A DNA stretch of 48,137 nucleotides from IMG/VR virus record IMGVR_UViG_3300011438_000004, positions 1 to 48,137 of that record; one strand, 5' to 3'. The notes below the pieces were generated by a model. It ran no database searches, had not been told where the DNA came from, and saw only the letters and a list, made by a program, of their open reading frames with translations. Positions 2,194 to 44,700 of the stretch are shown one piece after another. The DNA is from a virus (lineage: Duplodnaviria; Caudoviricetes). The translations under genes and the position numbers were made by a program. How positions within the stretch are numbered: the stretch's first letter is position 1; every line of letters starts with the position of its first letter.

Positions 2194-5100
2194 CGCCTCA
2201 GGAAATTATGGGAAGTTTGCCTAAACTTCCTTACCGAAAAGTCCTTGAGATGTATGACGAGGACAAGAACAAGACTCTGTTCTCCAACATGACGTTGCCT
2301 GAATACTCGCAACGTATGAACGCGCTCACCAAGTCAGAGATGTTTGCTGAAGGCGCCAAAGACTCTTGGATCAAAGGACTAAGTGCGCGCATCGACCAAG
2401 GCCTCGACTGGACTGGAGCACCCGAAGCCGCAGGATCAGTATTTGGCGCTATTGGTGAACCTCTTGGACTAGGACCAGAATTCACTTCCGCGGGCGAAGG
2501 GTTTCCGAGAGCGGCAGTAAATCTAGCGCCACTACTAATAGCTGCGCCTTTCACTGGCGGAGCTTCTCTTGGTCCTGCTGCTGCGGGTTTGGGAGGTTCA
2601 GCCCTTCTCGCTGGTTCTCAAGCTTATGAAAATACTGGTTCTGCTGGCCAGGGTCTATTCACTGGGGCTCTTACTGCTGCTATGCCTGGTGTGGCTCGCA
2701 TTGGAGGTCAAATGGCCTTACGCAAAGTTGGCGCTACGCTTGCGGACGAAGCTGGAAGACTTATTGGCGAAACCGGAGGACAGCGAGCGGCGCAGTATTT
2801 AGGAACTCAAGGAGCGGCATTAGGTCTTCAAGAAGCTGGGCATCAAGCTAGCTCAATTGCGTCTGGTCAAGGAGTTGACACTTCATCTAGTCATTTGGTT
2901 CAAAACGTTATCAGTCAACTACCCTTTCTTCCATTCGATCTACCAGAAGCTATTCGTGGTCCCAATCCAGCACTCGTTGCACAGATTCGAGCCGCGTCAG
3001 CAGCCAAACGAACTGAAGCGTTTAACGCTAGTTTAGCGCGTCAACAAGCGAGCAAGACTACTCCCGAGATTCTGGAACTAGCCTATCCCGAAGGCCGAGT
3101 TCCCGGCAACGACAACTTCGTTCTAGGTCGAGGAACTGATCCTACCTATGAAGGCTATCGCAAGTTAGACGTCGAAGAACCTTCTCCAGAGCACACACTT
3201 CTCGGCTATACTCTTCCAGAGTTGAGGCAATCTACTAGCGCCAACCGACCAGCGATTGAGAAACGTGTTGTCGGCGGTGAAGAGTTCAGAGGAACAAGAG
3301 AGAACTTTGACGTGTTTGATAAGTTTTTGGACTCAAGTCGTAGGTTTATCACACCTGAGATTTTAGAGAGTCAGATTAAACCTGCGTTAGCAGAACCCGA
3401 TCCAAATGTCGCTGTGCCTCAAATCAAGTTGTTGTATGATAAGACACTAAAACCCGAGCATGGAGTGCAGGACGTGGCGCTGGATCGTTTGAACGATGTC
3501 GAGATGCAGAAGAGCGTGGCAGAGAAGGTTCAAGATGGAGCTACGTTGGAAGAAGCAGTGGACAAGACTGCTCAAGCTGTGAAGAATGCGGCAGAGAGCG
3601 CAGTTGAAACTAAGGTTCAGCAGTTTGGCGCGAATAACAAGATTTTTACAAAGGAGGCTGTGGAAGCCGCGAGGGCCGCACGCAAGGCTAGAAGAGGTAA
3701 TGTGAACATGTTGGTTGATCCAAGCATTTTACACGAAATGTTTTTGGAAGCTGGGTATGTAGCCGAGGGATTGGCTCGTGCAGGAGCACTGAAAATTCAT
3801 GACTGGGCAGCGCAGACTAAGGAAATGCTCAAGCGAGAGTTTGACTTTGAGGCAGATGATAATACTCTTAGAAAGTTATGGTTTCAGGTTCGAGATTCAC
3901 TGAACATGAAAGAGGATGCGGAGTCTGGTAAGGTTATTACCAAAAGGCGCGAAGGTTTGATTGCGGCTACAGAAAAAATGAGTCATATTGATGACGAATA
4001 CAATGTGCTGCCTTATGAAGTTAGACAGTCGACTAAAAGTCCACTTACCCAAATAACTAAATGGCGCAATGATATTCTGTATAATAGCGCTAATGAGAAA
4101 TACAGTAAGTTTGCGGAGATTGACGATGCTTTGTTAAGGTCAATGGGAAATTTGACTTACAAAGGCGGTCAGTGGGTAGGTCCTAATGGAGAAGTGTTTA
4201 ATGAAAATCAAGTTAGGCGCTATATGCGAACCTCGGCTGAGAATGCTTACAAAGCTGCGATTAAGAAACAATCTGGAGGGGAGGAAATTGAGTATAATGA
4301 GTCTGTGGGTAAAGAGGGACAAGTAGTCAAAACTCCAATCGAACTAAAATCTCTTAATGAGGCGCGGCAAAAGGCCGACGCTATGCAACGGGAAGTTGGT
4401 CAAAATCAGGACTTTAGTTATGAAGGAGTAGAACGTCAAGGTAAGTTTGTTGTAGTTAAGAAATACAACAAACTTAAGACAATGAACGAAGGATTTGCTA
4501 GTCGTCCTGATCAACGTCAGGAAGATTATGTCCCTCCTGATATAACTGAACTTCAAGACGAAGGTGATGCTCCAGTGTTAATGGACGAGAATGGTGAAGT
4601 GTTTGATCCTTTGGAGATACTTTCTAGTGAAGTGGATAGTGTGCGTTCTTCTGGAACAGACCAAGCTGCGGTAGATACCTTTTCTCAGCACGCGGTTGAC
4701 ACAATTCAAAACATAGCTGAGCGTCTAGTTCTAGACGATCCTATTGCATTGAGTCTGGGATTCCGAAAAACTGAAAGTTTAATTCCTAGAGCTAGAGTTC
4801 TTTTGGATTATATACTAGATCGTAGATTTGGTCAGGGAAACATTAAGGCCGAGATTGACTATAATGATTTCTTGAACTTGGCAAATGACGTCCTACCAGA
4901 CGAGGCTCAGTTCAAAGGAACAGATAAACTAACTCCCGCAAAAGAAGCTAGTAATTGGGTTACTACAGGCCGAGAATTTCTTAAACTTTGGCTTCAAAAA
5001 CAACCAGAACTAGCTGAGCTTTATGAGTCGACGAAAAAAGAAGCGCGCTCGGTTGGAATGGGACCAACAGTGTCCTCTGCTATGGCACAACGTGAAGGGC

Positions 5101-8100
5101 AGATTAGGTTGGACGCCATCGGAGAAGCAGCTAGAACTGGTCTGGGATCGACGTCGATTACGGGATTGACAGAAATGCCAAAGGGACGTAGCTTTTTGAT
5201 GTCCACAATGGAGTATGCGAGAAAGTATTTCTCTCGTCGTGGGTATAAACCTGCAGAACAACAGGCTCACGCTGACGCGGTAGAGAATTTTGTTCGGGTA
5301 GCTGCAGTGTTTCCTCAAGCAGCGAAGGCGGAGACCGTGATGGCTCAAGCACTTGAAGGAAACGCGATCGGAGTGTTGCTTAATTATCAGTTCGAGAATG
5401 CGTGGAAACCAGTTGTTGGTTTACTTCCTAAAAACCTTGGTGGTGCTCAGACCGAAGCATTAGCTGGTATGGTTCTTGGTCATGAAGCATGGCACGTGGT
5501 GTCTTCGGCAGCTACAAGAGGTGAGCTTTCTCCACACGAAGCTTATACGGTTAAGCAAGCCGCTGACACTGCTGACGCAATGACAGAAGCCGATCGTTGG
5601 GCTGTTCTACGTTCTTCTGCACTTAGCACTTTGCCTCCTGAGGTTCAAGCAAACTTGGCACGAGACCCAATCGCTAGGCAACAGTTCGAGGGAATGCTAA
5701 AATACTCAGCTACTGACTCGAATGAGTTTCTTAGCACTATGGCTTCGATGTATGCTATGGGAGCAGCGCATAAGTCTACTTCGAAAGAAGGTATTCGTGG
5801 TGAGCTGTTGTATGGCGATGGAGCGTTTAGTCGACTAATGCTAACAGTTGCGCGTAAAGCCAAGGAGATAGGTTCTGCCATTAGAGGATTGTTCTTTGGG
5901 CAAAACAAACTTGTTGAAGATCGAGGACTGACACAACGTGAGGCTGATATGGTGGGTAATCTAAATCAAAGGTTTGCTTCTATAGCGGCGACTGGCAAAG
6001 AAATAGAAACCGCAGTTAAGCAACTTCGGTTTCTCGACGCTACTTCACCTAAGCACTTAATGGGAGCGGACAAAGGTGGATTTACTCCCTCGCTAAAAGA
6101 TGTCAAAACCGGAGATCGTGTATTGGACTCTACAATCGAGCCGTTATACATGAAAATCTTGCCAAAAGGTGACGAAACCGAGATTGGTAAGGTTGAATCA
6201 TGGTGGACAGATTTCTTACAATTAGCTGAAATGCATCCAGTGCTACAACCAATTGCTAGTGAACTCGTTGCTTATAGGTCCTCTGCCTCTCGTGGAGCTA
6301 ATGACGCAATTTCGCCTTTCTTTGAACGTGACTACGTTAATGGAGTGGTACGCATCAAAGGACCGTCTAAGTCGCTTCAGCAACTTAGTAAATCTGACAC
6401 CATGCGTAAGGCACTAAGTGATCAGGTTTTGACTGAGCAGACTTTGGGCAGGTTACTGACTCCTGAAGAGGCTAATTCATTCTACGCCAAACACGGAGTT
6501 ACTGGCGAACAGATAGCTCACCTACAAGAAGTTCGTTCGGCCATAGCAAGCTCGAACAAGATCGTAGCAGAGCAACTCAAACGCTATGGGCGACAGCAGA
6601 TTGTTCATGCTTCAGCTAGGTTAATGATGGCCGGTGGAGCTACGTCCTACCGTCCAGCGATTGACGCTTCTGAAAGACTGGTTACTGTTCTAGAAATGAC
6701 TAGCGGTAAAATTCCCTTACCTCCAGGAGTTGATCCAACTTTGCTTATACAATCAATATCAACAGAGTTCGGTATCCCTCCTGAGAAAGTTGCCACTACC
6801 TCAGCCGCTGTGACTGATCTGATTACAAAGTCTCAGACTATGGCAGCACGTCTGGACTCCCAACCACATTTCGTATCCGAGCAACGATTTGGTCGATACT
6901 CCGCATCCTACACTATTAAAGGAGAAAAACTTGCGGGTCGAGTTAGTGCTGATTCCAGAACAGAACTTGAATCTAAGATTGAACAAGTTCGTCGTGATCC
7001 TAATGTCGAAAACATTCAGCGTTACGATAATTCAGAAAGTAGTCTATTTGGCTTGAACCCCGACATCGTAAGAGCGTTCAAAGAAATCGGCGAACTAGCT
7101 GTTCAACGTGCTGATCCAACTGGAGCGTCTAAGCCAGCGTTTGAAGCATTCGACACTGCAATAGAAAAGGAACTATCTGCGCGTGGATTGAACAAATATC
7201 TTCAACATCGCAAGTTTGCTCCGGGGCGCGAACATTTGGACATGCTAGAAAACGGTATTCGTTACATCTCGACTGTGCCATACGCACTCACCAAAGGCTG
7301 GCTACGTGATAGAGCTTCGGTCGCTCTTCTTGATCCTACGTTTCAGGCCAATCCAAGTGCGGGTGTAGTAGCGCGTCAACAAATAGACAACGTTCTAGCA
7401 GGCACTTCACACTGGGCTAACAAAGTCCGAGAATGGTCGTTCTTGTATTTTCCCGCGGCGAACCTAAGCTCAGCAATGATCGAGGTCAGTCAGCCTTTGA
7501 CTGCACTTCCTGCGCAACTCACTCACGGAGGACTTTCAATTGCTAGTGGCTATAAGCTTTTGTTCGACGCTTACAAGCAAGTTGCACAAGCTTATTCAGG
7601 AGGTAAAAAATATGCTGATCCGTTTATTGATTCAATGGTATATCGTCTCGAACGTGATGGTCTGCTTGAGGCGCAAACCACAGGATACTTCTTTGACTAC
7701 GCTGACCTAAATGCGCTCAACATCTCTCGCGCTAAGGACGGTAAAGTTACTCCTTTAGGTATGGCAGAGGCAGCTAGTGGCAAAGTTAGTCACATAGCCA
7801 GTCTAATGCGTATGGTCTACGGCGCAGCGACTGGAGTATCATCCCGTGTCACAGCAGTCACTGCCGCGCTTCGAGCTAAGCAACTAATAGCCGAAGGTAA
7901 GTTAACTGAACCCGACTCGTATGCATACGTCACTAAGCTGCTGACTCTAACCGCCCCCGGAACAGGAGGATCAATCGCACGTCCCGCCGGATTTTACTCA
8001 GGCAAATGGATTAACCGTAGCGCTGCCGCTGCAATTGGGTCTCTCCAAGGGTTTACGGTCACCATGACCTCGATGATGTATCGTATGGCAAAGGACGCAG

Positions 8101-9161
8101 TTCGTAGCGGCTCGATTACTAGCGCGCATTCAAAAGCGTTTGCTCAGCTCGTCGGAACTCAGCTTCTTGCTGCGGGAGTTCTTGGCCTACCTGCTGTAGG
8201 AACCGCAATGGCAGTGGCAAACCAAATGTATCCTGGACTCAATGGAGATATTCGCAAAGGTCTTGCAGGTCTCTTTGGTGAAGACCTAGAGAACGGAGGT
8301 CCAATGGCTGACGCAGCAATGCGCGGTATTCCAAGTCGCATGACTGGTATTGACCTTTCTTCTCGTCTATCTCTTTCCAACATGTTAGGTATTTCCAGCT
8401 ACGATGGGGCGCACGTCTCTAATCTCTTTGGCGCACCCGGAGCTATCATTGGCAACCTATACAATGCTGGGGAAGCCGCACTCGAAGGAAACTTTGGTAA
8501 AGCCGCTGAACAAGCCTCTCCCGCTCCACTTAAAAACATACTCAAGTTGTATCGTAACGACGGCGAAGTTCGCGACTCAACTGGAAATCTCAAATACAGT
8601 CCTAATACGGCTGAGCGTGTTGCTATGTCTATTGGGTTCACTCCGAAACGCGTGGCCGATATGCGTGAATTCGAGCAAACCTCACGACAACAAGACGAAC
8701 GCACACGTAACGAACTCTCTCGATTCTATACCGACGTAGCCGAACTAATTGTTCGTAAAGACTTTGCAGCCGCACGCCAAATGCTAATCGGGCGCGAACG
8801 TGAATCTCCTTCTGAGTTCTCTGCTGCCGAAGGTCTTAAGGCTGCTGTTGAGAAAGCACAGAACATGACTCTTCCTGAAGACCCTCGTCGCGGAGGCTCT
8901 CGTCTAACTTCCACCGATCGCGAAGATCTACTCAAAACCTACGGAATCCAGGGTCCAGCTCCATCTGAAATGCAGCGTCTTCAACAAAAGCAGACAACCC
9001 TAGCCGCTTTTGGTCTTGGTGGCGGACTCGACAAATCAGCAGTCATGCGCGCTGTTCTTATTGACCAAATTATGGCAAAAGACCAAAACATCACTCGCGC
9101 TCGCGCTATTCAGCAAGTCGATAAAATGTTACGGCGGTCACCTCAGCCAACCTTGCAATAG
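2190..9161 (+). CDS. Large (2323 aa) internal virion/ejection polyvalent protein with a zincin-like HExxH motif and a PLxRFG-like C-terminal region
   Basis: LGHEAWH at ~5481-5495; FVSEQRFGRY at ~6870-6899; C-terminal AGVLGLP..GIDLSSRL..GFTP pattern typical of large podophage ejection proteins. Confidence 0.75.
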   Translation: MTPQEIMGSLPKLPYRKVLEMYDEDKNKTLFSNMTLPEYSQRMNALTKSEMFAEGAKDSWIKGLSARIDQGLDWTGAPEAAGSVFGAIGEPLGLGPEFTSAGEGFPRAAVNLAPLLIAAPFTGGASLGPAAAGLGGSALLAGSQAYENTGSAGQGLFTGALTAAMPGVARIGGQMALRKVGATLADEAGRLIGETGGQRAAQYLGTQGAALGLQEAGHQASSIASGQGVDTSSSHLVQNVISQLPFLPFDLPEAIRGPNPALVAQIRAASAAKRTEAFNASLARQQASKTTPEILELAYPEGRVPGNDNFVLGRGTDPTYEGYRKLDVEEPSPEHTLLGYTLPELRQSTSANRPAIEKRVVGGEEFRGTRENFDVFDKFLDSSRRFITPEILESQIKPALAEPDPNVAVPQIKLLYDKTLKPEHGVQDVALDRLNDVEMQKSVAEKVQDGATLEEAVDKTAQAVKNAAESAVETKVQQFGANNKIFTKEAVEAARAARKARRGNVNMLVDPSILHEMFLEAGYVAEGLARAGALKIHDWAAQTKEMLKREFDFEADDNTLRKLWFQVRDSLNMKEDAESGKVITKRREGLIAATEKMSHIDDEYNVLPYEVRQSTKSPLTQITKWRNDILYNSANEKYSKFAEIDDALLRSMGNLTYKGGQWVGPNGEVFNENQVRRYMRTSAENAYKAAIKKQSGGEEIEYNESVGKEGQVVKTPIELKSLNEARQKADAMQREVGQNQDFSYEGVERQGKFVVVKKYNKLKTMNEGFASRPDQRQEDYVPPDITELQDEGDAPVLMDENGEVFDPLEILSSEVDSVRSSGTDQAAVDTFSQHAVDTIQNIAERLVLDDPIALSLGFRKTESLIPRARVLLDYILDRRFGQGNIKAEIDYNDFLNLANDVLPDEAQFKGTDKLTPAKEASNWVTTGREFLKLWLQKQPELAELYESTKKEARSVGMGPTVSSAMAQREGQIRLDAIGEAARTGLGSTSITGLTEMPKGRSFLMSTMEYARKYFSRRGYKPAEQQAHADAVENFVRVAAVFPQAAKAETVMAQALEGNAIGVLLNYQFENAWKPVVGLLPKNLGGAQTEALAGMVLGHEAWHVVSSAATRGELSPHEAYTVKQAADTADAMTEADRWAVLRSSALSTLPPEVQANLARDPIARQQFEGMLKYSATDSNEFLSTMASMYAMGAAHKSTSKEGIRGELLYGDGAFSRLMLTVARKAKEIGSAIRGLFFGQNKLVEDRGLTQREADMVGNLNQRFASIAATGKEIETAVKQLRFLDATSPKHLMGADKGGFTPSLKDVKTGDRVLDSTIEPLYMKILPKGDETEIGKVESWWTDFLQLAEMHPVLQPIASELVAYRSSASRGANDAISPFFERDYVNGVVRIKGPSKSLQQLSKSDTMRKALSDQVLTEQTLGRLLTPEEANSFYAKHGVTGEQIAHLQEVRSAIASSNKIVAEQLKRYGRQQIVHASARLMMAGGATSYRPAIDASERLVTVLEMTSGKIPLPPGVDPTLLIQSISTEFGIPPEKVATTSAAVTDLITKSQTMAARLDSQPHFVSEQRFGRYSASYTIKGEKLAGRVSADSRTELESKIEQVRRDPNVENIQRYDNSESSLFGLNPDIVRAFKEIGELAVQRADPTGASKPAFEAFDTAIEKELSARGLNKYLQHRKFAPGREHLDMLENGIRYISTVPYALTKGWLRDRASVALLDPTFQANPSAGVVARQQIDNVLAGTSHWANKVREWSFLYFPAANLSSAMIEVSQPLTALPAQLTHGGLSIASGYKLLFDAYKQVAQAYSGGKKYADPFIDSMVYRLERDGLLEAQTTGYFFDYADLNALNISRAKDGKVTPLGMAEAASGKVSHIASLMRMVYGAATGVSSRVTAVTAALRAKQLIAEGKLTEPDSYAYVTKLLTLTAPGTGGSIARPAGFYSGKWINRSAAAAIGSLQGFTVTMTSMMYRMAKDAVRSGSITSAHSKAFAQLVGTQLLAAGVLGLPAVGTAMAVANQMYPGLNGDIRKGLAGLFGEDLENGGPMADAAMRGIPSRMTGIDLSSRLSLSNMLGISSYDGAHVSNLFGAPGAIIGNLYNAGEAALEGNFGKAAEQASPAPLKNILKLYRNDGEVRDSTGNLKYSPNTAERVAMSIGFTPKRVADMREFEQTSRQQDERTRNELSRFYTDVAELIVRKDFAAARQMLIGRERESPSEFSAAEGLKAAVEKAQNMTLPEDPRRGGSRLTSTDREDLLKTYGIQGPAPSEMQRLQQKQTTLAAFGLGGGLDKSAVMRAVLIDQIMAKDQNITRARAIQQVDKMLRRSPQPTLQ
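3221..3239 (+). repeat. Dispersed motif copy 1, GTTGAGGCAA-TCTAC-TAGC (intragenic)
   Basis: One mismatch to GTTGAGGCTA-N5-TAGC; local C-rich to G-rich switch. Confidence 0.8.
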
Positions 9162-9179
9162 TTGAGGCTAATCTTTAGC
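9161..9179 (+). repeat. Dispersed motif copy 2, GTTGAGGCTA-ATCTT-TAGC
   Basis: Perfect consensus; overlaps the stop codon of the large ejection gene. Confidence 0.9.
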
Positions 9180-9190
9180 TTAAACCTTAT

Positions 9191-10995: not shown

Positions 10996-11223
10996 TTATA
11001 AACATTTGGCTGTCGCTGCGGTCAGAGCCTCGAAGTGTTCGTGAGGATCAGCGTTGATAAGGTCGTAGTCGGTGACTATTGCTACACCGGCTTTGTTTTT
11101 CGGTAGGCGTTCGCCGACTAACTTACGAAGAGTGTTAAGATATATGACTTTGTCTACCTTAACATTATGACTATTGCGCAATTCATAGATTTCGTCAAGC
11201 GATATGTAGTATTCAGCACTCAT
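10996..11223 (-). CDS. Hypothetical protein
   Basis: 75-aa ORF coupled to the upstream gene. Confidence 0.55.
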   Translation of the reverse strand: MSAEYYISLDEIYELRNSHNVKVDKVIYLNTLRKLVGERLPKNKAGVAIVTDYDLINADPHEHFEALTAATAKCL

Positions 11224-12455
11224 TAGTTAGAACTGTTTTGTGATTTTAGGAACTCTTGTTCTTGTTTTAGTTTTAGGTGCGCTTCCTTGGTGAATAGCAC
11301 CATAGTTGTTATGTTTTTGGTTTTATGTTGAAGTGGCTGTCGAACTAGCTTGTCTGAGTTGACTAAATGATCTACTACTTGTCTGACCTCAGCTTCATTG
11401 CCATGAGCGAACATAGCAACATAGGCTTTTTTCTCAGCTAGGTGTCCGCCGGCTGCGCGGATTAGGTCAAATAGAGTAGATGCCATACCATTCAATTCAT
11501 TACGTCCTACGCCCTCAAAGACTCTTGATAGATTTTGTTCTACCATGTTAAGCAGACCCATAGCGAACTCTAGATGGTCTTTTCTTAGAACAAGTGCGGT
11601 TGATTCACTAAGCGAGATAAGCTGCGCGACCTTAAGAAGCTGAACATGTTTTGTTCTAAAGTAACCTAACAACATAGGGTCTTTGGTTGGAGGAACAAAA
11701 GCGTCATACCAATTTTTGAAATACAACTTAGCATCATCTTCCCAGCGAAATATACCGAAGACTTTTTTTAGTTCTTGTGCATATGCCATTGCTTCGTCCC
11801 ACGCTAGGCGCATTTCGTCAGTAACTTCAGGAAAGGCTATGCGTGCCGCTTCTTCGGATTCGTAGACAAATATCGCACGGCGGGAATAGCCACCTGAGAT
11901 GATGTCGTCACGAAGACGGGCAGTGATCCATGCAGGGGTGGTGCAACCTAGCATAGTTAGGTAAGGTTTGATAATAGTCTCGGCGCCGCGCTTGATAGTT
12001 CGATAAGTGTAGTCTCCGCGTTTATCAAATAATGTGGTTAGGAAATTTATCATTCCTTCTTTGGACGCGCCTATAAATTCCGACAATTCTGTAGCTAGTA
12101 TAGTCATCGGGGTGTAGACAAATGGTAGTCCTCCTTGAGGTGGAGTAAAAGCCATTTCGCACGTTTGCATCGCACCAATGATTGCTTCCTTGGTTACACA
12201 ATCCAATGCTATTGGTATGCCCTTCGCCTCTTCGAGAAAGCGTCCAGTGAAGTCCATAGCGGTTGATTTCCTTCCTCCGGGCGGAGCTACAAATACAACA
12301 TAAAGGTTGGTGTAAATATCAAAGTGCCCCATTTCCAGATGCACGCGCTTCGAGACCAGAGACGACAATGCAATCAATCCGGCCCACATAGCGTGGTTCG
12401 GATGGATTTCTGAGCATGAGGTAAAGGTCCGAAAGTTAGTGAGGAAGGAGTTCAC
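11223..12455 (-). CDS. DUF3987/YfjI-family P-loop ATPase (putative replication helicase)
   Basis: TNLYVVFVAPPGGRKSTA Walker A, ELSEF, LTMLGCTTP and GGYSRR are characteristic of DUF3987. Confidence 0.8.
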   Translation of the reverse strand: MNSFLTNFRTFTSCSEIHPNHAMWAGLIALSSLVSKRVHLEMGHFDIYTNLYVVFVAPPGGRKSTAMDFTGRFLEEAKGIPIALDCVTKEAIIGAMQTCEMAFTPPQGGLPFVYTPMTILATELSEFIGASKEGMINFLTTLFDKRGDYTYRTIKRGAETIIKPYLTMLGCTTPAWITARLRDDIISGGYSRRAIFVYESEEAARIAFPEVTDEMRLAWDEAMAYAQELKKVFGIFRWEDDAKLYFKNWYDAFVPPTKDPMLLGYFRTKHVQLLKVAQLISLSESTALVLRKDHLEFAMGLLNMVEQNLSRVFEGVGRNELNGMASTLFDLIRAAGGHLAEKKAYVAMFAHGNEAEVRQVVDHLVNSDKLVRQPLQHKTKNITTMVLFTKEAHLKLKQEQEFLKSQNSSN

Positions 12456-13053: not shown

Positions 13054-13055
13054 GG

Positions 13056-14183
13056 TTAAATTGCGTAGTTAAGTTTCTTTGCTGCTCTAGTAATCGCTGT
13101 ATATCTCCACCTAGCCATGTCCCAGATTTTAGGTGGCATCCATTCGTCGATGACTAACACATGATCCCATTCGGAACCTTGCGACTTGTGAGCGGTGATG
13201 CAATATCCGAAGTCAGCGTAGACTAGTCTTTTGCTGATGTGTTCCTTATCTTCGATTGGACGGTAGAATGGATCAGCCCAAAGTTCTATCTCTCGGGTGA
13301 AGTTATAACCATCTATTCTAGCAGCAATAGTGTATGAACGCGCGCTTTCACTTACAATTCCTTCAACCCACATTAGCTGACCGTTGAACACTCCTGCTTC
13401 TTTGTTATTGCGAAGACATATTAGTTTCTCTCCTTCGTGCAAACCGTCTTGCATTGAGAATCCTAGGTTAGCTCGCACTCGCTGATTGATCTGCTGTCTA
13501 GTTTTGTTGCGGGCACAAATTATTTGGTTCGCTGATTGAAGCAATTCTCCTTTGAGAAGTTTGTTCTGAAAGATCAAGTCGGGCTCTTTGCTTCCAAACC
13601 TATTTGGCTGGTATCCTGCTCCGCCTTGACGCACCGCTGTGGCGAACGCGATGATCGGAGATTCTAGTGCTTGCCTATGAATCTGGATCAACGTATAGTT
13701 AGGATCGCGCATTAGATTTGGGTTTTCGCCTACAGGTTCTAGCTGACCTGGATCACCAATGAAGAGTAGTGGTATTCCGAAACCGCATAGATGTTGGTAA
13801 ATCTCGGTTGATACCATCGAGGCTTCGTCGACTATGATAAGATCGTAGTCTAGATGTTCTTTAAGATTGAATGTAACCTCGTGGGTTAGTTCGTTCACTT
13901 CAACATAGTATATAAGCGAATGAATAGTCGAAGCTCCAACACCCTTGCGATTAAGAACATCTGCGGCTTTGCCAGTGAATGCGCATACAGCGACAGAACG
14001 AAACGTCTTGTCTCGAAGAATGTGCCGGATCATAGTAGTCTTACCAGTGCCCGCATAACCACCTAATCTAAAGATGTTTGGACAACCTGGAACGCGAGCA
14101 TTTTCATACCAGTCTTTTATGAACCCGAGCGCAAGAGTTTGTTCGGGAGATAGCTCGATATCTAGAGAGTTTAGTTCGTGCAT
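13056..14183 (-). CDS. SF1B RecD/Dda-like DNA helicase
   Basis: GYAGTGKTT, AFTGKAA, STIHS, IVDEASM, GDPGQL, IHRQA, TAHKSQGSEW, YTAITRA. Confidence 0.92.
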   Translation of the reverse strand: MHELNSLDIELSPEQTLALGFIKDWYENARVPGCPNIFRLGGYAGTGKTTMIRHILRDKTFRSVAVCAFTGKAADVLNRKGVGASTIHSLIYYVEVNELTHEVTFNLKEHLDYDLIIVDEASMVSTEIYQHLCGFGIPLLFIGDPGQLEPVGENPNLMRDPNYTLIQIHRQALESPIIAFATAVRQGGAGYQPNRFGSKEPDLIFQNKLLKGELLQSANQIICARNKTRQQINQRVRANLGFSMQDGLHEGEKLICLRNNKEAGVFNGQLMWVEGIVSESARSYTIAARIDGYNFTREIELWADPFYRPIEDKEHISKRLVYADFGYCITAHKSQGSEWDHVLVIDEWMPPKIWDMARWRYTAITRAAKKLNYAI

Positions 14184-14335
14184 TTGTAAAATTTTGGTGG
14201 ATTATCTTTAATGTGCTTTTCTAATTCTTCATATACTTTAGAATTTAACTCCTTTAGTTTTTCAAAGTATTCGCGTAGTTCTCCCATACTAACCGAACGA
14301 AGCATTTGATACAGTTCGTTACATTCATTCGACAT
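14171..14335 (-). CDS. Small hypothetical protein (54 aa; not in ORF track)
   Basis: MSNECNELYQMLRSVSMGELREYFEKLKELNSKVYEELEKHIKDNPPKFYKCTN fills the gap between polA and the helicase. Confidence 0.5.
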   Translation of the reverse strand: MSNECNELYQMLRSVSMGELREYFEKLKELNSKVYEELEKHIKDNPPKFYKCTN

Positions 14336-14340
14336 AAATT

Positions 14341-17169
14341 TTATATCTTGCCCGCTTTCAAATCGCCCCAGCTTGTGCCATAGGCGCCTTCAAACGGAAT
14401 TGTTATTAGTTGATCTGCAATTGTGATTGGATTGTGCATAGCGTATCGAATACGCTCAAGGCAGTAGTCGGTTTCGCTAATAGGAAATTGACCATTCAAC
14501 GCGTCGTGAACTTGATGCAAAGGCTCGACTATCAAACCATATCGACGGCCATAGTCCCTATTCTTTGGATCGTTCCACAGCTTTAGCACTCCCAGATCAG
14601 TTACATAGGTAGTATTATGCTGAGGCTCGTGAGCTAATGCGTTGCGTAGCGTCTCCTGATTGATTCCAGTCCCATCTTTAATTCGACCAAAGAACCTTCT
14701 TGCTGATCCACTAGCCGCTATCAACCTTCCGTGCGTAAGTAGTTGATTCTCTACCCAATAATGCCAGCGTTCTACTCCAATGTAACGAGACAAATACAAA
14801 GCTCTTAACCTTCCACAAGTTCTAGGTGGCACATAAATCGGATCACCTAGAAACTTATACGAGTCCTTCAAAATGATGTTGCTAACAGTATCTTCCTGTG
14901 CGCCATAATTTGTGCCGTGCTGCACTCGCTTTGAAGCAAAGTATAACCACCCATCAGGATCGACTTGCTTACCAAGGTGAGCTAGGTCTGCGCGAGATAA
15001 ACTATTGATGTATCTAGCCACCTCATGCATCATCCGGTCCATTTCCTTATCGGACATTTCACGCTGAGAATTAGCTTCGAACCTAGCCTTCTCATTCTCC
15101 ATTGTCAAATACATCTGTGCCACAATCTTCGCTGGCTTTAGACCAAACAAATAGTCGTCCAACATCGTCGGATCACCAAGTCTTTTGCAATGCGCTGCAA
15201 CTGTCCATCCATCAGCACCAGCTAGATCGCATTGAAAGAAGTGCATACCCGGATCAGCACGAAGAGTCCATCTATACTTCTTAGTTACAGTCTGCAAATT
15301 ATACCCCGATCCTGTTGGAGATTTGTAACACGCTAGTCTTCCAGTATCAGATCCAACCACGTTATATCCACATCGTATTCTCCCGTCTGGATCAACCTTT
15401 GTATCAAGAATGTTTGCCGTATAAAGCAGCGACCTAATCTGCAAGATCAACTTACACACCTGATCCTGAGTCTTTCTATAGATCGTTAACAAAGCCGACA
15501 CATCGCTAGTTAACACCTTCGCTCCACTCTCGGTCTCATTATACTGACGCTCGAACCTCTTTCCATTAGGTTGCACATACAACCAATCAACCATCTGCTT
15601 AGACGAGTCAACATTCAACTCGATGTCTAGTAAATACTCAATCTCGCCCAAGGTCTCTAGACTAAACTCTCCTTCAAACCTACCTTCTTTGTCCATCTCC
15701 GCCAATCTAACCGCAGATTCCATCTTACCCTTCAGCGCGGCTCCGGGTAGTTGTCCAAACACCATGACGTAAGGAGCCTCTCTCTTTTTGCAGACGGCGC
15801 TACGAGCTAGCCTCAACAAATCCTCTTTAGAGCCGAGATACATTCGGCCTGAGGCTAAGTTCAACTGATGCTTTAGTCCCCAGAGTTTGTGTAGAACTTC
15901 TTTGCGTGCAGAGGCCGCGCCTACGGAATCGTAGTTAATGCCCCGAAGAGACATGAATAGTAGGGGGTCGAGTAGATTAAGATTGAACTTAAAATGCTCT
16001 AGTGATTTGGGATGTTCAGCTAGTCGCGCGGACTGAACCTGTCGAATCTCTTCGGTTACAGCAGAGTCTTTGCAACAGTATAGTTCTCGAGTTGAAAGGT
16101 CCTCGTCTTCACGTTCTTCTTTCCAATACGGCTCTCTTGTATATATTGACGCTTGAAGCCCTAGGTTTTTGTCCAACTCGCAGAACAACTCCCAGTGCCC
16201 AAGCATGGTGTCCCAAGCTACGTTGGATATGAGAATTTTGTATTGATAGGCGAGGACGAAACGGTCGTAGAGGGAATTTTGTAGAACCTTCGGTATGAGA
16301 GGGTCTGTAAGGATCCGACTAACTGCCACCCATATTCCGAGTTCTTCATCCAGGGACCAGTGGGAATCGAACTCACCACTGGTAATCGGAACAACGAAGC
16401 CCTCGGTCGGTGAGGTCGCAAAAGAGAAACGTGTAACTCTGTTCCAGTAACCTTCAAGGTCAAACGAGACCCAAACTGGAGGCCCTTGTTGTCTAGCTCG
16501 CTCAACAATATCGCCCAGCGCGCGAATGATCGTTGAGTAAGAACAACCAACCAAGAGGTTTCGTTTAGGTAAATCGAGAGCAGGACTGGTGGCTTCGATC
16601 CGCGACTTAGACAAATCAAGGCGGAGTAGTGGGGACCAATCGTATTTGCGTAGAACGCCTGCCGGATGGATTGAAGGTAGGCATTTACGTCCGGCAAAGG
16701 GAGAGTCATAGTTAGATTGTAGTAAAGAGCCCCGCCAAGCAGTGATCGAGCGGAACTCTCCGCAGGCGGCGCGAAGGGCGTATTTGCCCAGCAGGAGGAT
16801 TAGGTTCGGGTTGAAGGTTCGGATGTCGTTTGTTAGACGGTCGAGCGATTCGGTTATTTCTGGTCCGTTCCATTTGAAGTAAGATAGTTTGTTTTCTGGA
16901 GGTTGATAATTGCAGATGTTACCAACAAAGCAGGCGCGACGGTCTATTCCGTGCGCCGCGAGAAGCTGGTTTAGGAAATGACCTGAGGCTCCAACGAATG
17001 GGTGACGTTGTTTGGTTTCGTTATCGCCCGGAGCTTCTCCGACTATGGCTAGACGGTAGGGCGCGTCAATCGTGGGAAAGACGTTGGGAACAAGCGTGCC
17101 AGTAGGAATCAAGCTAGGAAGCTGGTTGTCTACTGCTTTAAGAAAAGAGTCAGGAAGGTTTATTGCCAC
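14341..17169 (-). CDS. polA: Family A DNA polymerase with N-terminal family-4 uracil-DNA glycosylase and 3'-5' exonuclease domains
   Basis: UDG: VGEAPG..PFVGASG..N..PPEN..HPAGVLR. Exo: FDLEG, QNSLYD, YCCKD. Pol: TGRL, NLQT, CDLAGADG, KRVQHGTNYG, VHDA. GTG 17169 is preferred as start over 17274 because of the overlap with the upstream ORF. Confidence 0.93.
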   Translation of the reverse strand: MAINLPDSFLKAVDNQLPSLIPTGTLVPNVFPTIDAPYRLAIVGEAPGDNETKQRHPFVGASGHFLNQLLAAHGIDRRACFVGNICNYQPPENKLSYFKWNGPEITESLDRLTNDIRTFNPNLILLLGKYALRAACGEFRSITAWRGSLLQSNYDSPFAGRKCLPSIHPAGVLRKYDWSPLLRLDLSKSRIEATSPALDLPKRNLLVGCSYSTIIRALGDIVERARQQGPPVWVSFDLEGYWNRVTRFSFATSPTEGFVVPITSGEFDSHWSLDEELGIWVAVSRILTDPLIPKVLQNSLYDRFVLAYQYKILISNVAWDTMLGHWELFCELDKNLGLQASIYTREPYWKEEREDEDLSTRELYCCKDSAVTEEIRQVQSARLAEHPKSLEHFKFNLNLLDPLLFMSLRGINYDSVGAASARKEVLHKLWGLKHQLNLASGRMYLGSKEDLLRLARSAVCKKREAPYVMVFGQLPGAALKGKMESAVRLAEMDKEGRFEGEFSLETLGEIEYLLDIELNVDSSKQMVDWLYVQPNGKRFERQYNETESGAKVLTSDVSALLTIYRKTQDQVCKLILQIRSLLYTANILDTKVDPDGRIRCGYNVVGSDTGRLACYKSPTGSGYNLQTVTKKYRWTLRADPGMHFFQCDLAGADGWTVAAHCKRLGDPTMLDDYLFGLKPAKIVAQMYLTMENEKARFEANSQREMSDKEMDRMMHEVARYINSLSRADLAHLGKQVDPDGWLYFASKRVQHGTNYGAQEDTVSNIILKDSYKFLGDPIYVPPRTCGRLRALYLSRYIGVERWHYWVENQLLTHGRLIAASGSARRFFGRIKDGTGINQETLRNALAHEPQHNTTYVTDLGVLKLWNDPKNRDYGRRYGLIVEPLHQVHDALNGQFPISETDYCLERIRYAMHNPITIADQLITIPFEGAYGTSWGDLKAGKI
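15799..15817 (-). repeat. Dispersed motif copy 3, GTTGAGGCTA-GCTCG-TAGC (inside polA, reverse orientation)
   Basis: + strand reads GCTACGAGCTAGCCTCAAC; perfect consensus on the - strand; skew flips mid-gene. Confidence 0.88.
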
Positions 17170-17374
17170 GTAAAAAGAGTGAAGCTGGTGTGTGGTCAAA
17201 TACAGTGTTAATCTTGTTCTCGATAGACGCTTGAAGCAAGAATGGCAGTTCGTCGAATTCGACCTCAGTGCCAATAGAAGCGTAGCGTTTACGTTTGACG
17301 ACAGACGATGGCCTGCCGCAGGTGAGACCTACGTCGTAGTCATAACCTTGGAATTCAATGGTGAATAGGGTCAT
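17150..17374 (-). CDS. Hypothetical protein
   Basis: 74-aa ORF, ATGA-coupled to the ParB-MTase gene. Confidence 0.55.
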   Translation of the reverse strand: MTLFTIEFQGYDYDVGLTCGRPSSVVKRKRYASIGTEVEFDELPFLLQASIENKINTVFDHTPASLFLRGNKPS

Positions 17375-18939
17375 TCAAGTTTTGGAGTTAATGGCGGTGG
17401 GGTGTAATGAACATGAACCTCGTATCTCTGTCCCGAGAACTGTTCTATAAGCGTCTTCGCCGTGTTGCGTAGAAACTCAAGATGGTGTTGGTCTCCTATC
17501 TCGCTAGCAAACCATCTCCGGCCTTTGCGAATAAACGCAGATACACCAGAACCGGAACCTACAAACGGTTCGTAGATCACGTGACTAGGGACTGAGATTG
17601 CGTCGACTATCCAAGACCAGAGTTCAAATGGTTTGGCGAACGGATGATCGAAGTCTTTGTCAGCTATAGTTTTTTGGACTACCCTCCAGTTAAGAGGTTG
17701 ATGCTCGATCAATGTTGATCCCGGCTTCCGCATGACGATAATGTCTTCGGTGGCTTTAGTGAAGTTAAACCCCGCGGCTTGGTTCATGCCTGAGACTTTG
17801 CACCATACATTAGTCCAACGTTGGACTGCGAATCCTGCTTCGGTTCCGAGGTCGACTAGCCAGCGAAAGTTCATTGCATCGCAGAACATGACTAGAAATC
17901 CTTTGTCTTTGATAGTTTTGAATGCGAGCGGGACAAACTTTTTTAGAAGTTCGATGTTGTCTTTGACTACATGTTCGTTGACTGTCTTCTCCACATCCAT
18001 ACCGGTGTTCTCTTGCTGAAGGTTCGCCATGTCGATAGCATACGGAGGATCGGTAACGATGTGGTTAACTGAATTAGGGTTAGCTGCCATCCAGACTAAG
18101 CATGACTCGTTGCGGTAGAAATTGTATAGGTTAATGTCGATCCTTTTGAGTTCGGGCTCAGTAAGAACTGGTTCAACTACAATAGGGACTAAACCACTTA
18201 GGTCAAGAATATTCGGTTGCGGAGCTTCGGTAGATATAGACTCTTGTTGTTCAGGCATCAAGAACTGACTAAGTGCATTAGCCAATGACTGACCAATTCC
18301 CGGAGGCAGGGCGCTAGACGCAAGTGGCGCGCCAGTCGAAGTCATATTGTTGAGGGCTAGTCCATTACCAAGAGATTGCGCAGCCAACATTCCTTCAGCT
18401 TGTCTCTGAAGTTGCTCCATTAGTTTCGTATACGCCGAGGTAACATCAGGAGACTTGGCCACTTCGCTCTCAGGGTTGTCGCGAATGTAACGTGCGACTG
18501 GAAGAATCTGTCCTACTCGTTGACGAGAGCGTCCGATCGAGATAGCGGTTTGAGTCTGTCCCCATTCTTCACCAGCAATAGCGGATTCTTGGGACCTGAG
18601 AAGATGGATGTCCAAAACTCCAAGAACATATTCTTGCCACTCCATGTCTTTGCGACGGATGTTTTCCTCAAGCTCCATTTCACGTAGATCAGCGGGAGTT
18701 GGAGTCTCGCGATGAACGTATTCGACTTGCTTAAAGCGTTCGTGTCCGAGGTCACGAAGAATTAGGTGCGCGAAGTATCGACGGCCGCCGAAGATTAGTT
18801 CGTTGTCGTGATTGAGTCCGATTGGTTGCAGTAGACCATAGCGAAGTATTGAGGCTGCGAGTTCGTCGAGGTCTCCGTAGTCAACCCGTTTGCGAGTTCC
18901 AACTCTGACTTGGTCTAGGTCTATGTGATTATGTTCCAT
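17371..18939 (-). CDS. ParB-N/HTH fused to an N6-A/N4-C DNA methyltransferase (beta-class order)
   Basis: LDELAASILRYGLLQPI..FGGRRY..ELEENIRR (ParB), HTH QTQTAISIGRSRQRV, then TDPPY (motif IV), HPFAKP and EPFVGSGS (motif I). Confidence 0.88.
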   Translation of the reverse strand: MEHNHIDLDQVRVGTRKRVDYGDLDELAASILRYGLLQPIGLNHDNELIFGGRRYFAHLILRDLGHERFKQVEYVHRETPTPADLREMELEENIRRKDMEWQEYVLGVLDIHLLRSQESAIAGEEWGQTQTAISIGRSRQRVGQILPVARYIRDNPESEVAKSPDVTSAYTKLMEQLQRQAEGMLAAQSLGNGLALNNMTSTGAPLASSALPPGIGQSLANALSQFLMPEQQESISTEAPQPNILDLSGLVPIVVEPVLTEPELKRIDINLYNFYRNESCLVWMAANPNSVNHIVTDPPYAIDMANLQQENTGMDVEKTVNEHVVKDNIELLKKFVPLAFKTIKDKGFLVMFCDAMNFRWLVDLGTEAGFAVQRWTNVWCKVSGMNQAAGFNFTKATEDIIVMRKPGSTLIEHQPLNWRVVQKTIADKDFDHPFAKPFELWSWIVDAISVPSHVIYEPFVGSGSGVSAFIRKGRRWFASEIGDQHHLEFLRNTAKTLIEQFSGQRYEVHVHYTPPPLTPKLE

Positions 18940-19307: not shown

Positions 19308-19769
19308 TTAAGTGCTAACTTCCTTCTTCACAAACCTCACACTCGTGCTCTCCGCATACCCATCCTTCTCCGGCTGCACCGCCGTCTTCGTTGTAATCTG
19401 CTGATTCACCAACGTTTCGATATTGAACGCTGCTAGCTTAATGCTTTTGCGTCCCTCTTCACCGAAGACTGCATCCAACAGCAGTGCCACGTCTCTGCCG
19501 ATCATCTCTCCGGTGCGTTTGTCCGTTGGAGTCAATCCAATGCGGTGCGTGTGCTTAAACCCAGCAGTAACTGCGGCACCGTTCTTATCCACCGCGTCAA
19601 CCATCAACTCCAACCCGATCACCAACAACTTACCCTTCTTATCATTGGTGTCCTTGATCTCCGCAGACTTAATCATCCATGGATAAATCCCAGGCTGTAA
19701 CACCGGATAGTCCGTGTTGACTGTTGTCAAATCAAGGTCTTGCAGACTTTGTAGTTCACCTAATTGCAT
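19308..19769 (-). CDS. Putative ssDNA-binding protein (DUF669-like OB fold)
   Basis: DYPVLQPGIY..IKSAEIK pattern; lies after the Sak4-like ATPase and nuclease, as in typical phage recombination modules. Confidence 0.7.
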   Translation of the reverse strand: MQLGELQSLQDLDLTTVNTDYPVLQPGIYPWMIKSAEIKDTNDKKGKLLVIGLELMVDAVDKNGAAVTAGFKHTHRIGLTPTDKRTGEMIGRDVALLLDAVFGEEGRKSIKLAAFNIETLVNQQITTKTAVQPEKDGYAESTSVRFVKKEVST

Positions 19770-19920: not shown

Positions 19921-20769
19921 CTATGGTGCTGCGGTTAAAGCTATTGGACCGGTGATTATGTTGTCGGTCTTTACAGAAATTACTGATTCAGGAACTGGCA
20001 TCGACGGCTGCACAGTCTTTGCCTTCACTGCATCAAGTGCGTCCTTAAACGCTTTAGTCGTAAACTTAAACTCAGCTGGAAGTCCAAGTGAATTACCCAA
20101 TGCCATCTTCGATGTCGGTTGAGTTCTTACAAAATACCTAGTCTCTATCTGGTTCTTGCCCATTACTTGTTTGGTCTCCGTTCTCCATACATCAGTGAAC
20201 AATCCTCCTATATTGTTCTTCAACTGCCCCGGAATAAGTGGCCTATGCACAAACGTCCCAGACTCCTCATCTTTGTCCGATTCTTCATGCATAATCAAAA
20301 CCGTTAACTTTCCACTCGCTCTACACGCCATAATCAATCTCGTCCACAAATCTCTAAACGGCATCCACATACTTTGGTCCATAACCTTGATTCCTCCTAC
20401 CATGAGTGTGGTCTTTGCCGTGCTCGGAAACTGTAAAATATGCTCGATCAAAAACGTGCTTAACGAAGACCCAGAGTCAATCACAATAGTCTCTACTTCG
20501 GGCGAAACCCACGCTTCTTTGAGGCACTTAACCGCATTCTCCCATCGTTTAGGGCCTTCGATTGGACCTCCCGCCGAGTTCCTTAGTCCATTATCCCAGA
20601 AGAACTTCTTCCCCGGATGACGCTGCACTGCATTAGCTAATTTGTCGTCAGCGTCAAAGAAGTATGGACTAGGAAACTCCATTGCTACATTAGTCTTCCC
20701 ACTAAGAGGCGGACCTATTAGCAAGAGAGCAAAGTTAGTTTGCGCTACGTATTTATCAGATGATTGCAT
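19921..20769 (-). CDS. AAA_24/Sak4-like ATPase (recombination)
   Basis: LLIGPPLSGKT Walker A, IVIDSGS Walker B, LIMHE, FTDVW. Confidence 0.82.
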   Translation of the reverse strand: MQSSDKYVAQTNFALLLIGPPLSGKTNVAMEFPSPYFFDADDKLANAVQRHPGKKFFWDNGLRNSAGGPIEGPKRWENAVKCLKEAWVSPEVETIVIDSGSSLSTFLIEHILQFPSTAKTTLMVGGIKVMDQSMWMPFRDLWTRLIMACRASGKLTVLIMHEESDKDEESGTFVHRPLIPGQLKNNIGGLFTDVWRTETKQVMGKNQIETRYFVRTQPTSKMALGNSLGLPAEFKFTTKAFKDALDAVKAKTVQPSMPVPESVISVKTDNIITGPIALTAAP

Positions 20770-20771: not shown

Positions 20772-20790
20772 GTTGAGGCTAGTAAATAGC
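20772..20790 (+). repeat. Dispersed motif copy 4, GTTGAGGCTA-GTAAA-TAGC
   Basis: Perfect consensus, intergenic. Confidence 0.9.
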
Positions 20791-20795
20791 GAAGA

Positions 20796-26410: not shown

Positions 26411-26429
26411 GTTGAGGCTAATTATTAGC
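26411..26429 (+). repeat. Dispersed motif copy 5, GTTGAGGCTA-ATTAT-TAGC
   Basis: Perfect consensus. Confidence 0.9.
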
Positions 26430-26580
26430 TTCGACGGCCTTCAAAGTCGATGTCGCGGCCTTTGCGTCGTTTGGCTACGTCTCGACGAGCTAGGGTTTGT
26501 AAATGAGAAGATCGCCGTGGCATCGCTATGCGAAGAATGAGTAGGGTTACGAGGAGGTTTAGGAGTATTACTGTGGTCAT
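26425..26580 (-). CDS. Small membrane-anchored basic peptide (51 aa; not in ORF track)
   Basis: MTTVILLNLLVTLLILRIAMPRRSSHLQTLARRDVAKRRKGRDIDFEGRRS. Confidence 0.45.
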   Translation of the reverse strand: MTTVILLNLLVTLLILRIAMPRRSSHLQTLARRDVAKRRKGRDIDFEGRRS

Positions 26581-29155: not shown

Positions 29156-29174
29156 GTTGAGGCTATTGATTAGC
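29156..29174 (+). repeat. Dispersed motif copy 6, GTTGAGGCTA-TTGAT-TAGC
   Basis: Perfect consensus in the non-coding control region. Confidence 0.9.
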
Positions 29175-29239
29175 GCAGACATTAGATTGATGATGGGTAA
29201 TTTGAACCCGAGAGGTAAGGGCGCTTGGTGTAGCTCGAC

Positions 29240-30698: not shown

Positions 30699-31376
30699 AT
30701 GGGACATTCACTCGATACTCTCGCCGCTGATCCAGAACGTCCGCAAGGACGTCCTCTTGGCGCGGGGTCTAATCCTGATTTGGCTAAGAAAGAGAACCTT
30801 GCCAGAAGGCATTTGTTCGCGCTATTAGGTAGCACCGACGAAGAAGATCCGCCCACAGGGGTGCCGATTCCTCAGGTCGATATTTTCGGTGAAAAGCCGG
30901 AGCACAGGTTGATGTGCATGTTGAAAGCGCAAGGAAAGAACCACCGCGAGATAGCTGTAGCAATGGAGTATAGTGAAGGGCATGTGCAAACAGTGCTTGC
31001 GCAGCCGTGGGCTAGGAAGAGGGTGATGGACGAGATTATGACGTCGGGGAGAGACGGATTGGATGAGTTGTTTAAGGGAGCCGCGGCGGATTCGGTTTAT
31101 ACTTTGATTGATGTAAGGGACGACAAGAAGGAGAGTGGTGCGACGAGAGTGAGCGCGGCAAATTCTTTGCTCGATAGGTTTCTTGGTAAGGCAGTGGCGA
31201 ATGTTAATGTGCGTAGCGGAAAGTTGAAAGAGTTCGCGACGTTGGAGGAGATTGACAAAGAGCTGGAAGACCTAAAGGCTAAGGAGCGCGAGATTATGAC
31301 GAAGCTTCCAGTGCGCGAGGTTGAAGCTATTAGGACTGAGTTGCTTAATGCGGCTACTGCGGGAGGAGCTGCGTGA
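30699..31376 (+). CDS. Putative terminase small subunit
   Basis: HTH-like KAQGKNHREIAVAMEYSEGHV and RVSAANSLLDR; directly upstream of terL. Confidence 0.65.
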   Translation: MGHSLDTLAADPERPQGRPLGAGSNPDLAKKENLARRHLFALLGSTDEEDPPTGVPIPQVDIFGEKPEHRLMCMLKAQGKNHREIAVAMEYSEGHVQTVLAQPWARKRVMDEIMTSGRDGLDELFKGAAADSVYTLIDVRDDKKESGATRVSAANSLLDRFLGKAVANVNVRSGKLKEFATLEEIDKELEDLKAKEREIMTKLPVREVEAIRTELLNAATAGGAA

Positions 31377-37654: not shown

Positions 37655-38191
37655 ATGAAAATCGTAGGAATTGTAATCGGTCACGGACCGAAAATCGACA
37701 CGGGCGCCGTCTCAGTCGACGGAAACGAAACCGAACTTGCTTGGAATAGAGAACTTGCATTCTACATTTGTAAGTTTTCCGAAAAATTCGATGCTGCACT
37801 AATCCACCGCAAGGTCGAAAAACTTCCTCCATACGCTGAAGTTAACTCTCTTCATTGTGACCTTGCAATCGAACTTCATCTAAACTCCTCTGACCCTGCT
37901 GCAACTGGGTCTGAAATGATTCACTATGCTGGATCAACCAAAGGCAAACAATTCGCTGAGCTACTACTCACTGCGGCAGTCTCTACTCTCAAACTCAAGA
38001 ACCGGGGGGTCAAAACTCCTTGGCAAGGTCGGGGCAACGCGTTTCTCAAAAACACTCGTTGTCCGGCCGTAATCGTCGAATCTTTCTTTATCAACAACCC
38101 TAGCGACTTAGCTCGCGGCGCCGAAGTTCAAGAAGACCTCGCCAGAGCATACGTCCACTCCATTGATCAAATGGTTGAGGCCATTAGCTAG
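37655..38191 (+). CDS. Endolysin, N-acetylmuramoyl-L-alanine amidase (Amidase_3)
   Basis: IGHG..GAV..ETE, IELHLNS and PAVIVESFFINN give the Zn ligands and catalytic Glu. Confidence 0.9.
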   Translation: MKIVGIVIGHGPKIDTGAVSVDGNETELAWNRELAFYICKFSEKFDAALIHRKVEKLPPYAEVNSLHCDLAIELHLNSSDPAATGSEMIHYAGSTKGKQFAELLLTAAVSTLKLKNRGVKTPWQGRGNAFLKNTRCPAVIVESFFINNPSDLARGAEVQEDLARAYVHSIDQMVEAIS

Positions 38192-38198
38192 CCTCAAC
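38174..38198. repeat. Dispersed motif copy 7, double (palindromic) form GTTGAGGCCATTAGCTAGCCTCAAC
   Basis: Reads as the motif on both strands with one mismatch each. Confidence 0.9.
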
Positions 38199-44678: not shown

Positions 44679-44681
44679 TTG

Positions 44682-44700
44682 GTTGATGCTATTAACTAGC
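44682..44700 (+). repeat. Dispersed motif copy 8, GTTGATGCTA-TTAAC-TAGC
   Basis: One mismatch to consensus; intergenic. Confidence 0.82.

Follow-up and report, generated by a model that had tools for sequence, protein, structure and literature searches.

Why does the strand composition of a virus genome reverse again and again at copies of one short sequence, and what reads that sequence? The question is raised by IMG/VR virus record IMGVR_UViG_3300011438_000004 (Duplodnaviria; Caudoviricetes), analysed here as a single stretch of 48,137 nucleotides (nt), hereafter the window; its ends overlap by 123 base pairs (bp) and the genome is a 48,014-bp circle. A preliminary description of this DNA had listed eight copies of a motif, each at a switch from C-rich to G-rich, and had proposed that they are fixed initiation points for replication, either bidirectional strand-displacement origins or hairpin priming sites. 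The reading that we favour, with a probability of about 0.38, is a different one: the motif copies would be parS-like loading sites for a phage-encoded ParB clamp, and the saw-tooth in composition would be the deamination footprint of exonuclease resection stopped by loaded clamps.

Palindromes and GC skew in the window

The element is a 25-bp palindrome, GT-N4-GCTA-N5-TAGC-N4-AC, present in nine copies. A scan with a symmetric matrix returned these nine sites, after which scores fell by at least 13 bits to background; all eight copies listed earlier were recovered and a ninth, at 30815-30839, was added. The exact string GTTGAGGCTA-N5-TAGC, which had been given for all eight, is found at only five of them (9161, 15799 (reverse), 20772, 26411 and 29156), and the copies at 3221, 38174 and 44682 deviate from it by 1-2 bases. 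The looser pattern GT-N4-GC-N9-GC-N4-AC occurs 8 times in the window, compared with 0.6 on average and never more than 3 across 200 Markov simulations. The nine sites are spaced more evenly than random (P=0.001), with a largest gap of 7,359 bp, and five are intergenic, which makes 56% compared with a background of 12% in the window, the other four lying inside genes. They are listed below with the step in third-position skew at each site.

3221..3245, site 1, within the gene for a 2,323-amino-acid (aa) virion protein, step +0.50
9161..9185, site 2, beginning where the large virion gene ends, at its stop codon, step +0.44
15793..15817, site 3, within the gene for DNA polymerase, its best half-site being on the - strand, step +0.62
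20772..20796, site 4, filling the intergenic gap that adjoins the Sak4 gene, step +0.92
26411..26435, site 5, intergenic, early region, step +0.93
29156..29180, site 6, at the early/late junction between long inverted repeats, step -0.16 (no skew step)
30815..30839, site 7, within the gene upstream of the large terminase, step +0.12
38174..38198, site 8, an almost perfect palindrome where the endolysin gene ends, step +0.84
44682..44706, site 9, taking up a gap between genes of the structural block, step +0.71

The association of these sites with GC skew is strong. Across the earlier eight sites the mean (G-C) step, with 500 bp counted on each side, is +67, a value that 100,000 random site sets and all rotations of the site set failed to reach, so that the link between motif positions and skew stands. 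Seven of the eight lie at or above the 92nd percentile for step; the flip that had been claimed for every copy is missing at 29156, which stands at the 58th percentile. Minima of the detrended cumulative skew, which had been expected to fall on the motifs, lie 20-170 bp from six sites, whereas those nearest the sites at 15805 and 30827 are 416 bp and ~650 bp away and a minor minimum at 12392 has no site. The skewless site at 29156 and the weak-step site at 30815 flank the two shortest intervals.

At four-fold degenerate codon positions the skew changes from -0.47 to +0.44 across the earlier eight sites, and it does so in + genes (-0.51 to +0.39) as in - genes (-0.42 to +0.53). The flip has the same sign in both, and it is therefore a synonymous one that does not depend on the direction of the genes, as the preliminary description had noted for + and - gene blocks; the four-fold and third-position values rule out a gene-strand or amino-acid artefact. 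A C-rich to G-rich flip at synonymous positions is a pattern expected of replication origins. Expressed by strand, C is half as frequent on the one running 5'-to-3' away from a site as on its partner, the away/toward C ratio in the window being 0.38-0.65 in every neighbour class, and no single motif emerges from k-mer asymmetry around the sites. The loss of C is largely context-free and, in relatives, T exceeds A on the same strand, as for deamination of single-stranded DNA (ssDNA). The two sides of a site mirror each other in skew whichever way the genes run, and composition at mid-interval is intermediate between the two flanks. Transcription-primed one-way initiation is ruled out, since both flanks shift in both gene orientations.

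Two observations concern individual sites. Site 29156 lies in a non-coding junction (28638-29871) that contains a 5-bp tandem array (~28657-28764) and three long inverted repeats around the site; the physical ends of the genome are probably close by. The virion protein of 2,323 aa (2190-9161) carries a PLxRFG domain, and its homologues often hold an in-gene palindrome that keeps the spacing even.

Arrays in relatives and a candidate binder

We examined 65 relatives whole, comprising a first set of 43 (8 from GenBank and 35 from IMG/VR) and a second set of 22; in the first set the search for repeats was made blind to skew. A palindrome family there counted as clean when its score gap was 10 bits or more, and the largest gap in 8 simulations was 5.6. 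The first set yielded 22 clean families and 11 further arrays that were weaker or came from a second method (for which simulated gaps went up to 8.1), and 10 genomes had no array; in the second set 14 of 22 genomes had clean arrays. Altogether 47 of the 65 relatives carry 5-17 dispersed palindromes, mostly ~25 bp and odd-centred, with a sequence specific to each lineage. A significant positive skew step accompanies 14 of the 33 first-set arrays and 2 of the 14 second-set arrays (16/47). The lowest z is -2.2, no relative has a significant step of opposite sign, and in most skewed relatives T also exceeds A on the G-rich strand. Origin-type polarity thus recurs with palindromes of other sequence. 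The palindrome array is general in the group and the saw-tooth is optional; 31 of 47 arrays show no step, and the preliminary description had named motifs without skew in relatives as a result that would refute it. No gene separates skewed from unskewed genomes by presence or absence, nor do uracil-DNA glycosylase (UDG) or methylase motifs.

The doubtful arrays of VS3 and G006 were dropped, as were the 8 second-set genomes without a clean array. G030 and ctMlz233 were left out of the 31-genome covariation set, G010 (truncated ParB) out of the covariation and exonuclease tests, and G058 was dropped as a contig without the exonuclease. Aeromonas P5, which stands outside the 65, has no array, and a locus search with the single protein DUF3987 gave no matches. 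Other repeats were seen in passing. L051 (vir526), a relative without ParB, carries an asymmetric 12-mer 19 times, facing both ways, across its genome, and G030 (L215-L217) has dozens of oriented CCCCGCCC-like words besides a weak palindrome array. In each of the IMG/VR contigs L005 (3001-3025) and L006 (3001-3025), both arms of a perfect 25-bp palindrome carry the window's best half-site; no homologues of window proteins were found near either. The exact motif had 43 matches in IMG/VR, which were taken as unrelated, there being no homologues of window proteins within 3 kilobases (kb) of any.

Several lines of evidence point to one protein as the reader of the palindromes:

17371..18939, - strand, 522 aa, ParB-CTPase domain, Spo0J/Noc-type helix-turn-helix (HTH), linker and beta-class N6/N4 DNA methyltransferase; specificity residue R139

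On sequence grounds, a dimer of this HTH very probably docks on the palindromes. The ParB-methyltransferase is present in 40 of 44 genomes, and the four that lack it (PaMx41, Kuura, Tiera and vir526) have no array. Its N-terminal profile, including the HTH, matches Spo0J, Noc and ParB chains with E values of 1e-20 to 3e-17; boxes I-III of the CTPase are intact, and R16, R18, G35, G51, R54, E89 and N93 are invariant in 54 sequences. ParB folds can bind ATP or GTP as well (PMC12704722). The HTH helices span residues 128-135 and 139-154 in the predicted structure, and in an alignment to Spo0J (4UMK) R139 falls on the KSR-motif arginine. In Caulobacter ParB the corresponding R173 of the KSR motif reads guanine 1, and in Noc a Gln at the same place reads adenine 1 (PMC7383237).

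The same code appears in the covariation of residue 139 with the site. Among 31 genomes, Gln139 goes with A at site position -6 in 7/7 cases, compared with 0/24 of the others, and for A(-6) residue 139 is the only error-free column out of 5,886 in 13 proteins; the Gln139 genomes span at least three lineages. An aliphatic residue goes with TT sites (6/8 vs 0/23, the column ranking second for TT), and Arg or Lys with G sites (9/10 vs 1/21, the best of the full-coverage columns). The window follows suit, with Arg139 and G at -6. The held-out genomes agree: G030, G048 and G054, the last with a weak array, all combine Gln with A(-6), and A(-6) is found in none of 13 clean non-Gln arrays. This covariation matches the published Arg-G and Gln-A code of ParB and Noc. 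Indeed, a CTPase fold, an HTH with a 173-equivalent residue and palindromic sites in the same replicon are all found, and the palindromes likely function like parS or the Noc-binding site NBS. The methyltransferase half has a beta-class fold with its DPPY motif IV (297-300) ahead of an FxGxG motif I and an invariant G461, and Foldseek matched it to M1.HpyAVI (E 2e-14) and also to CcrM and M.BceJIV. No full-length ParB-HTH-methyltransferase was found in a phage outside the DUF3987 group, which therefore offers no outside control.

This assignment bears on three earlier or alternative ideas. The arms of the palindromes pair at only 6-9 of 10 positions and their likeliest binder is a ParB-methyltransferase and not a primase, which speaks against hairpin priming sites. 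Dispersed ParB-family sites are known as centromeres or operators from N15 sopC and from RK2 KorB (PMC3235114), and the array might likewise serve partition or gene control, with the skew as a side effect. The intergenic bias of the sites would fit this, but four of nine evenly spaced sites lie inside genes, the methylase takes the place of the C-terminal domain, and no ParA was found by Pfam among the 52 open reading frames (ORFs) of the window; across 47 genomes a ParA-type Walker A pattern matched a single 84-aa ORF. The system is thus not ParABS, unlike N15 and RK2, which as described in that source use ParA or IncC for partition or repression and have no methylase fusion, and we hold the idea to be very improbable. 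Still less probable, if by little, is that the palindromes are virion nick sites as in T5, phiKMV and tf, with displacement or gaps from nicks making the skew. The copies are dispersed and their 4-N5-4-6 layout loosely resembles the phiKMV consensus (PMC3517423); the nick sites described there are, however, non-palindromic and confined to one strand, whereas the window sites are two-fold symmetric and track the ParB HTH, and no nickase was identified in the window.

What writes the saw-tooth

The replication block of the window encodes, with the ParB-methyltransferase, the following proteins:

11223..12455, - strand, DUF3987 MCM-like AAA+ helicase with a C-terminal winged helix and without a primase domain
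13056..14183, - strand, Dda/RecD-like superfamily 1 (SF1) helicase, accessory, in 4/17 skewed vs 3/30 unskewed genomes
14341..17274, - strand, family A DNA polymerase (PolA) with a family-4 UDG domain
19308..19769, - strand, DUF669-like protein, presumably an ssDNA-binding protein
19921..20769, - strand, Sak4-like ssDNA annealing protein
21064..22095, - strand, PD-(D/E)XK exonuclease (PDDEXK_1), with a long insertion that tracks the skew

No DnaG or archaeo-eukaryotic (AEP) primase was found among the window's 52 ORFs, and no replication initiator in the window. DUF3987 folds like MCM: its structure is predicted with a confidence (pLDDT) of 92.5, and all the Foldseek matches listed are MCM ATPase domains, in agreement with PMC4889955, where the relative 119X is described as lacking a primase. 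These features keep initiation in play as a rival. Bound ParB-methyltransferase might load the DUF3987 helicase or license priming on both strands, making the sites several small bidirectional origins or fixed starts of lagging-strand synthesis. The polarity of the skew in 16 of 47 relatives, significantly reversed in none, and the intermediate composition at mid-interval agree with this, and DUF3987 is present in 28 of 28 contigs found through ParB-HTH. Set against it are the 31 arrays without a step, four DUF3987+PolA phages that have neither the ParB-methyltransferase nor an array, and the covariation of the site sequence with the ParB HTH and not with any DUF3987 column. We know of no ParB that acts as a replication initiator, and counted this against initiation as well. 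The proposal that the sites are initiation points has the polarity and the missing primase for it, and we consider it a close rival of somewhat lower probability than the favoured reading.

The shape of the skew was compared with several decay laws by log-likelihood gain over 13 skewed genomes. Exponential laws with a fixed decay (0.7-3 kb) fit best, both for a process that starts at the site (876) and for one that stops there (873); laws based on absolute distance (815), on meeting forks (803) and on pure strand displacement (701) were poorer. The start-at-site law is thus as good for initiation as the barrier law is for resection, whereas the fork-meeting laws count against initiation, and the bidirectional strand displacement proposed earlier fits worst. 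In the window alone all laws fall within 157-164, 7 units apart. Skew at the genome ends did not discriminate the models. Two further candidates, Ter-like fork-barrier sites and breaks at the sites followed by 5'-3' resection, were ruled out by reasoning, as each predicts skew of the opposite sign.

The exonuclease holds a feature that may distinguish skewed from unskewed arrays. When 5,214 columns from six core proteins were scanned blind, its insertion was the top separator of the two: an insertion of at least 39 aa is present in 13/16 skewed and 2/30 unskewed genomes, and its length correlates with step z (Spearman 0.53). The contrast between the sisters G005 and G008 also speaks for this link. 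The exonuclease and Sak4 occur in 46 of 47 genomes. A C-terminal pattern of three cysteines, present in 42 of 46, is one that we take to be Cas4/AddB-like; the exonuclease has no sequence match in the PDB.

Our preferred explanation, which we rank slightly above initiation at the sites, is that of clamp-stopped resection. By analogy with ParB and Noc, CTP would close the clamp, which would slide out and methylate DNA, and sites every 5-7 kb would cover the genome with sliding methylase. A break between two sites would be resected 5'-to-3' toward both, and we suggest, tentatively, that resection would be halted at the clamp-bound sites. The strand exposed would be the one running 5'-to-3' away from each site, its 3' tails serving Sak4 annealing or priming, and its loss of C would mimic the polarity of an origin without any origin. 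Resection of this kind would account for the observed sign and for the difference-of-exponentials shape, and it would make the skew depend on the exonuclease variant.

A number of points weigh against this explanation. The link between insertion and skew is post hoc, with counts that ignore kinship, and G001, G037 and G040 are skewed without a long insertion, as G017 and G042 have the insertion without skew. Laws that start and that stop at the site fit equally, and each exponential law has one more tuned parameter than its rivals. The 5'-to-3' polarity of the exonuclease is our assumption, from Cas4/AddB behaviour as we remember it, and a two-fold asymmetry in C would need resection in nearly every cycle. 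As for the binder, six first-set genomes with the ParB-methyltransferase gave no clear array, Lys139 is mixed (T in G015, G057 and G059), and G039 is an exception to the Arg rule. A first blind leave-one-out column scan did not pick residue 139, because several site families were shifted by one base, and the residue-class test came after it.

The methylase itself might write the skew, if clamps leaving a site modified one strand according to their direction of travel and so altered the mutability of cytosine over 1-3 kb. The decay length resembles clamp spreading, and the nearest folds are beta-class dimers that include CcrM and N4-methylcytosine (4mC) enzymes. The loss of C in the window is nearly context-free, however, T and A shift as well, methylase motifs fail to separate skewed from unskewed genomes, and it is not obvious where a diffusing clamp of two-fold symmetry would get a polarity. 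We regard this as improbable.

The remaining genome is mentioned for context. Window coordinates 13000-32900 are covered by one unitig at 14.5x with no alternative letters (one repeat was skipped), and the capsid and portal are of SU10 type. The UDG-like family-4 domain on PolA (14341-17274) varies in its motifs among relatives and is absent in a few. An ATP-dependent ligase adjoins DUF3987 in 29 of 44 genomes and is absent from the window, G001 and G040; in the window its place beside DUF3987 (10339-10992) is taken by a 217-aa ORF of no recognised kind. A second repeat family, TATGCT-N3-GGCTGA (22102, 25712, 27901 and 29970), lies on one strand of the early region, and its copies are possibly phage promoters or operators. 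The ORF at 25688-26086 contains imperfect 6/12-nt tandem repeats at 25858-26085. GTAC (7 vs 99 expected) and ATCGAT (0 vs 12 expected) are strongly avoided in the whole genome of the window, and restriction pressure therefore persists in spite of the methylase.

Relation to known systems and meaning

The nearest known systems are ParB-parS and Noc-NBS (PMC7383237, PMC12704722), which as described there share with the window CTPase boxes and an HTH, a palindromic cognate site, and the same specificity position with its Arg-G and Gln-A code; Noc is also used independently of ParA. The window differs in that the protein is phage-encoded and in its ~25-bp sites, with extra outer GT..AC contacts, compared with the 16 bp given for those systems. 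In addition, a methyltransferase replaces the C-terminal domain, there is no ParA, and in the group as a whole site sequences are lineage-specific, sites tile a 45-kb genome, and a third of carriers bear a footprint in strand composition. Chi, acting with RecBCD or AddAB, is a genome-wide mark of self that limits resection and passes 3' tails to recombination; it is a short sequence with an orientation, and its reader is the nuclease complex. Under the favoured reading the palindromes would limit resection too, as proposed protein roadblocks acting in both directions.

Phage ParB-N6/N4-methyltransferase fusions with the same Pfam domains (PF02195 and PF01555) have been reported (PMC12704722); the available part of that source suggests an anti-defence role and names no DNA target, whereas in the window an HTH and a genome-wide site array suggest one. 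GC-skew flips of the same sign mark phage origins (PMC7162821; crAssphage preprint 10.1101/2024.03.20.585998), with one or two origins in the cases those sources present, compared with seven clear flips in 48 kb here, each on a repeated site. Fredfastierviridae (119X, PaP2 and PaMx41) and allied DUF3987+PolA podophages share PolA, the MCM-like DUF3987, Sak4 and the exonuclease, and have no recognised primase; identity to the window is only ~22%, and PaMx41 lacks the ParB-methyltransferase, the array and the saw-tooth. In the literature searched, mostly open-access main texts without supplements, no phage was found with evenly spaced sites that pin a saw-tooth skew.

A flip of origin type in skew need not mark an origin, and this caution applies here. 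Phage ParB-methyltransferase fusions are common, and the literature found assigns them no target; with dozens of protein-site pairs supplied by nature, and a specificity residue that can be read, binding is open to direct test, and so is the programmable loading of a methylase. In the saw-tooth, evolution has recorded a strand-specific process that is anchored on the sites and reaches over 1-3 kb. On balance we think it somewhat more probable than not that a large group of primase-less phages tiles its genomes with palindromes that serve as self-addresses for a CTP-gated ParB clamp-methylase, and that in a third of them the clamps organise replication or recombination, as Chi-like barriers or as multiple origins for the MCM-like helicase, leaving a eukaryote-like saw-tooth with a period of ~5 kb. 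This bears on how 119X-like phages replicate without a primase, a matter flagged as open in PMC4889955.

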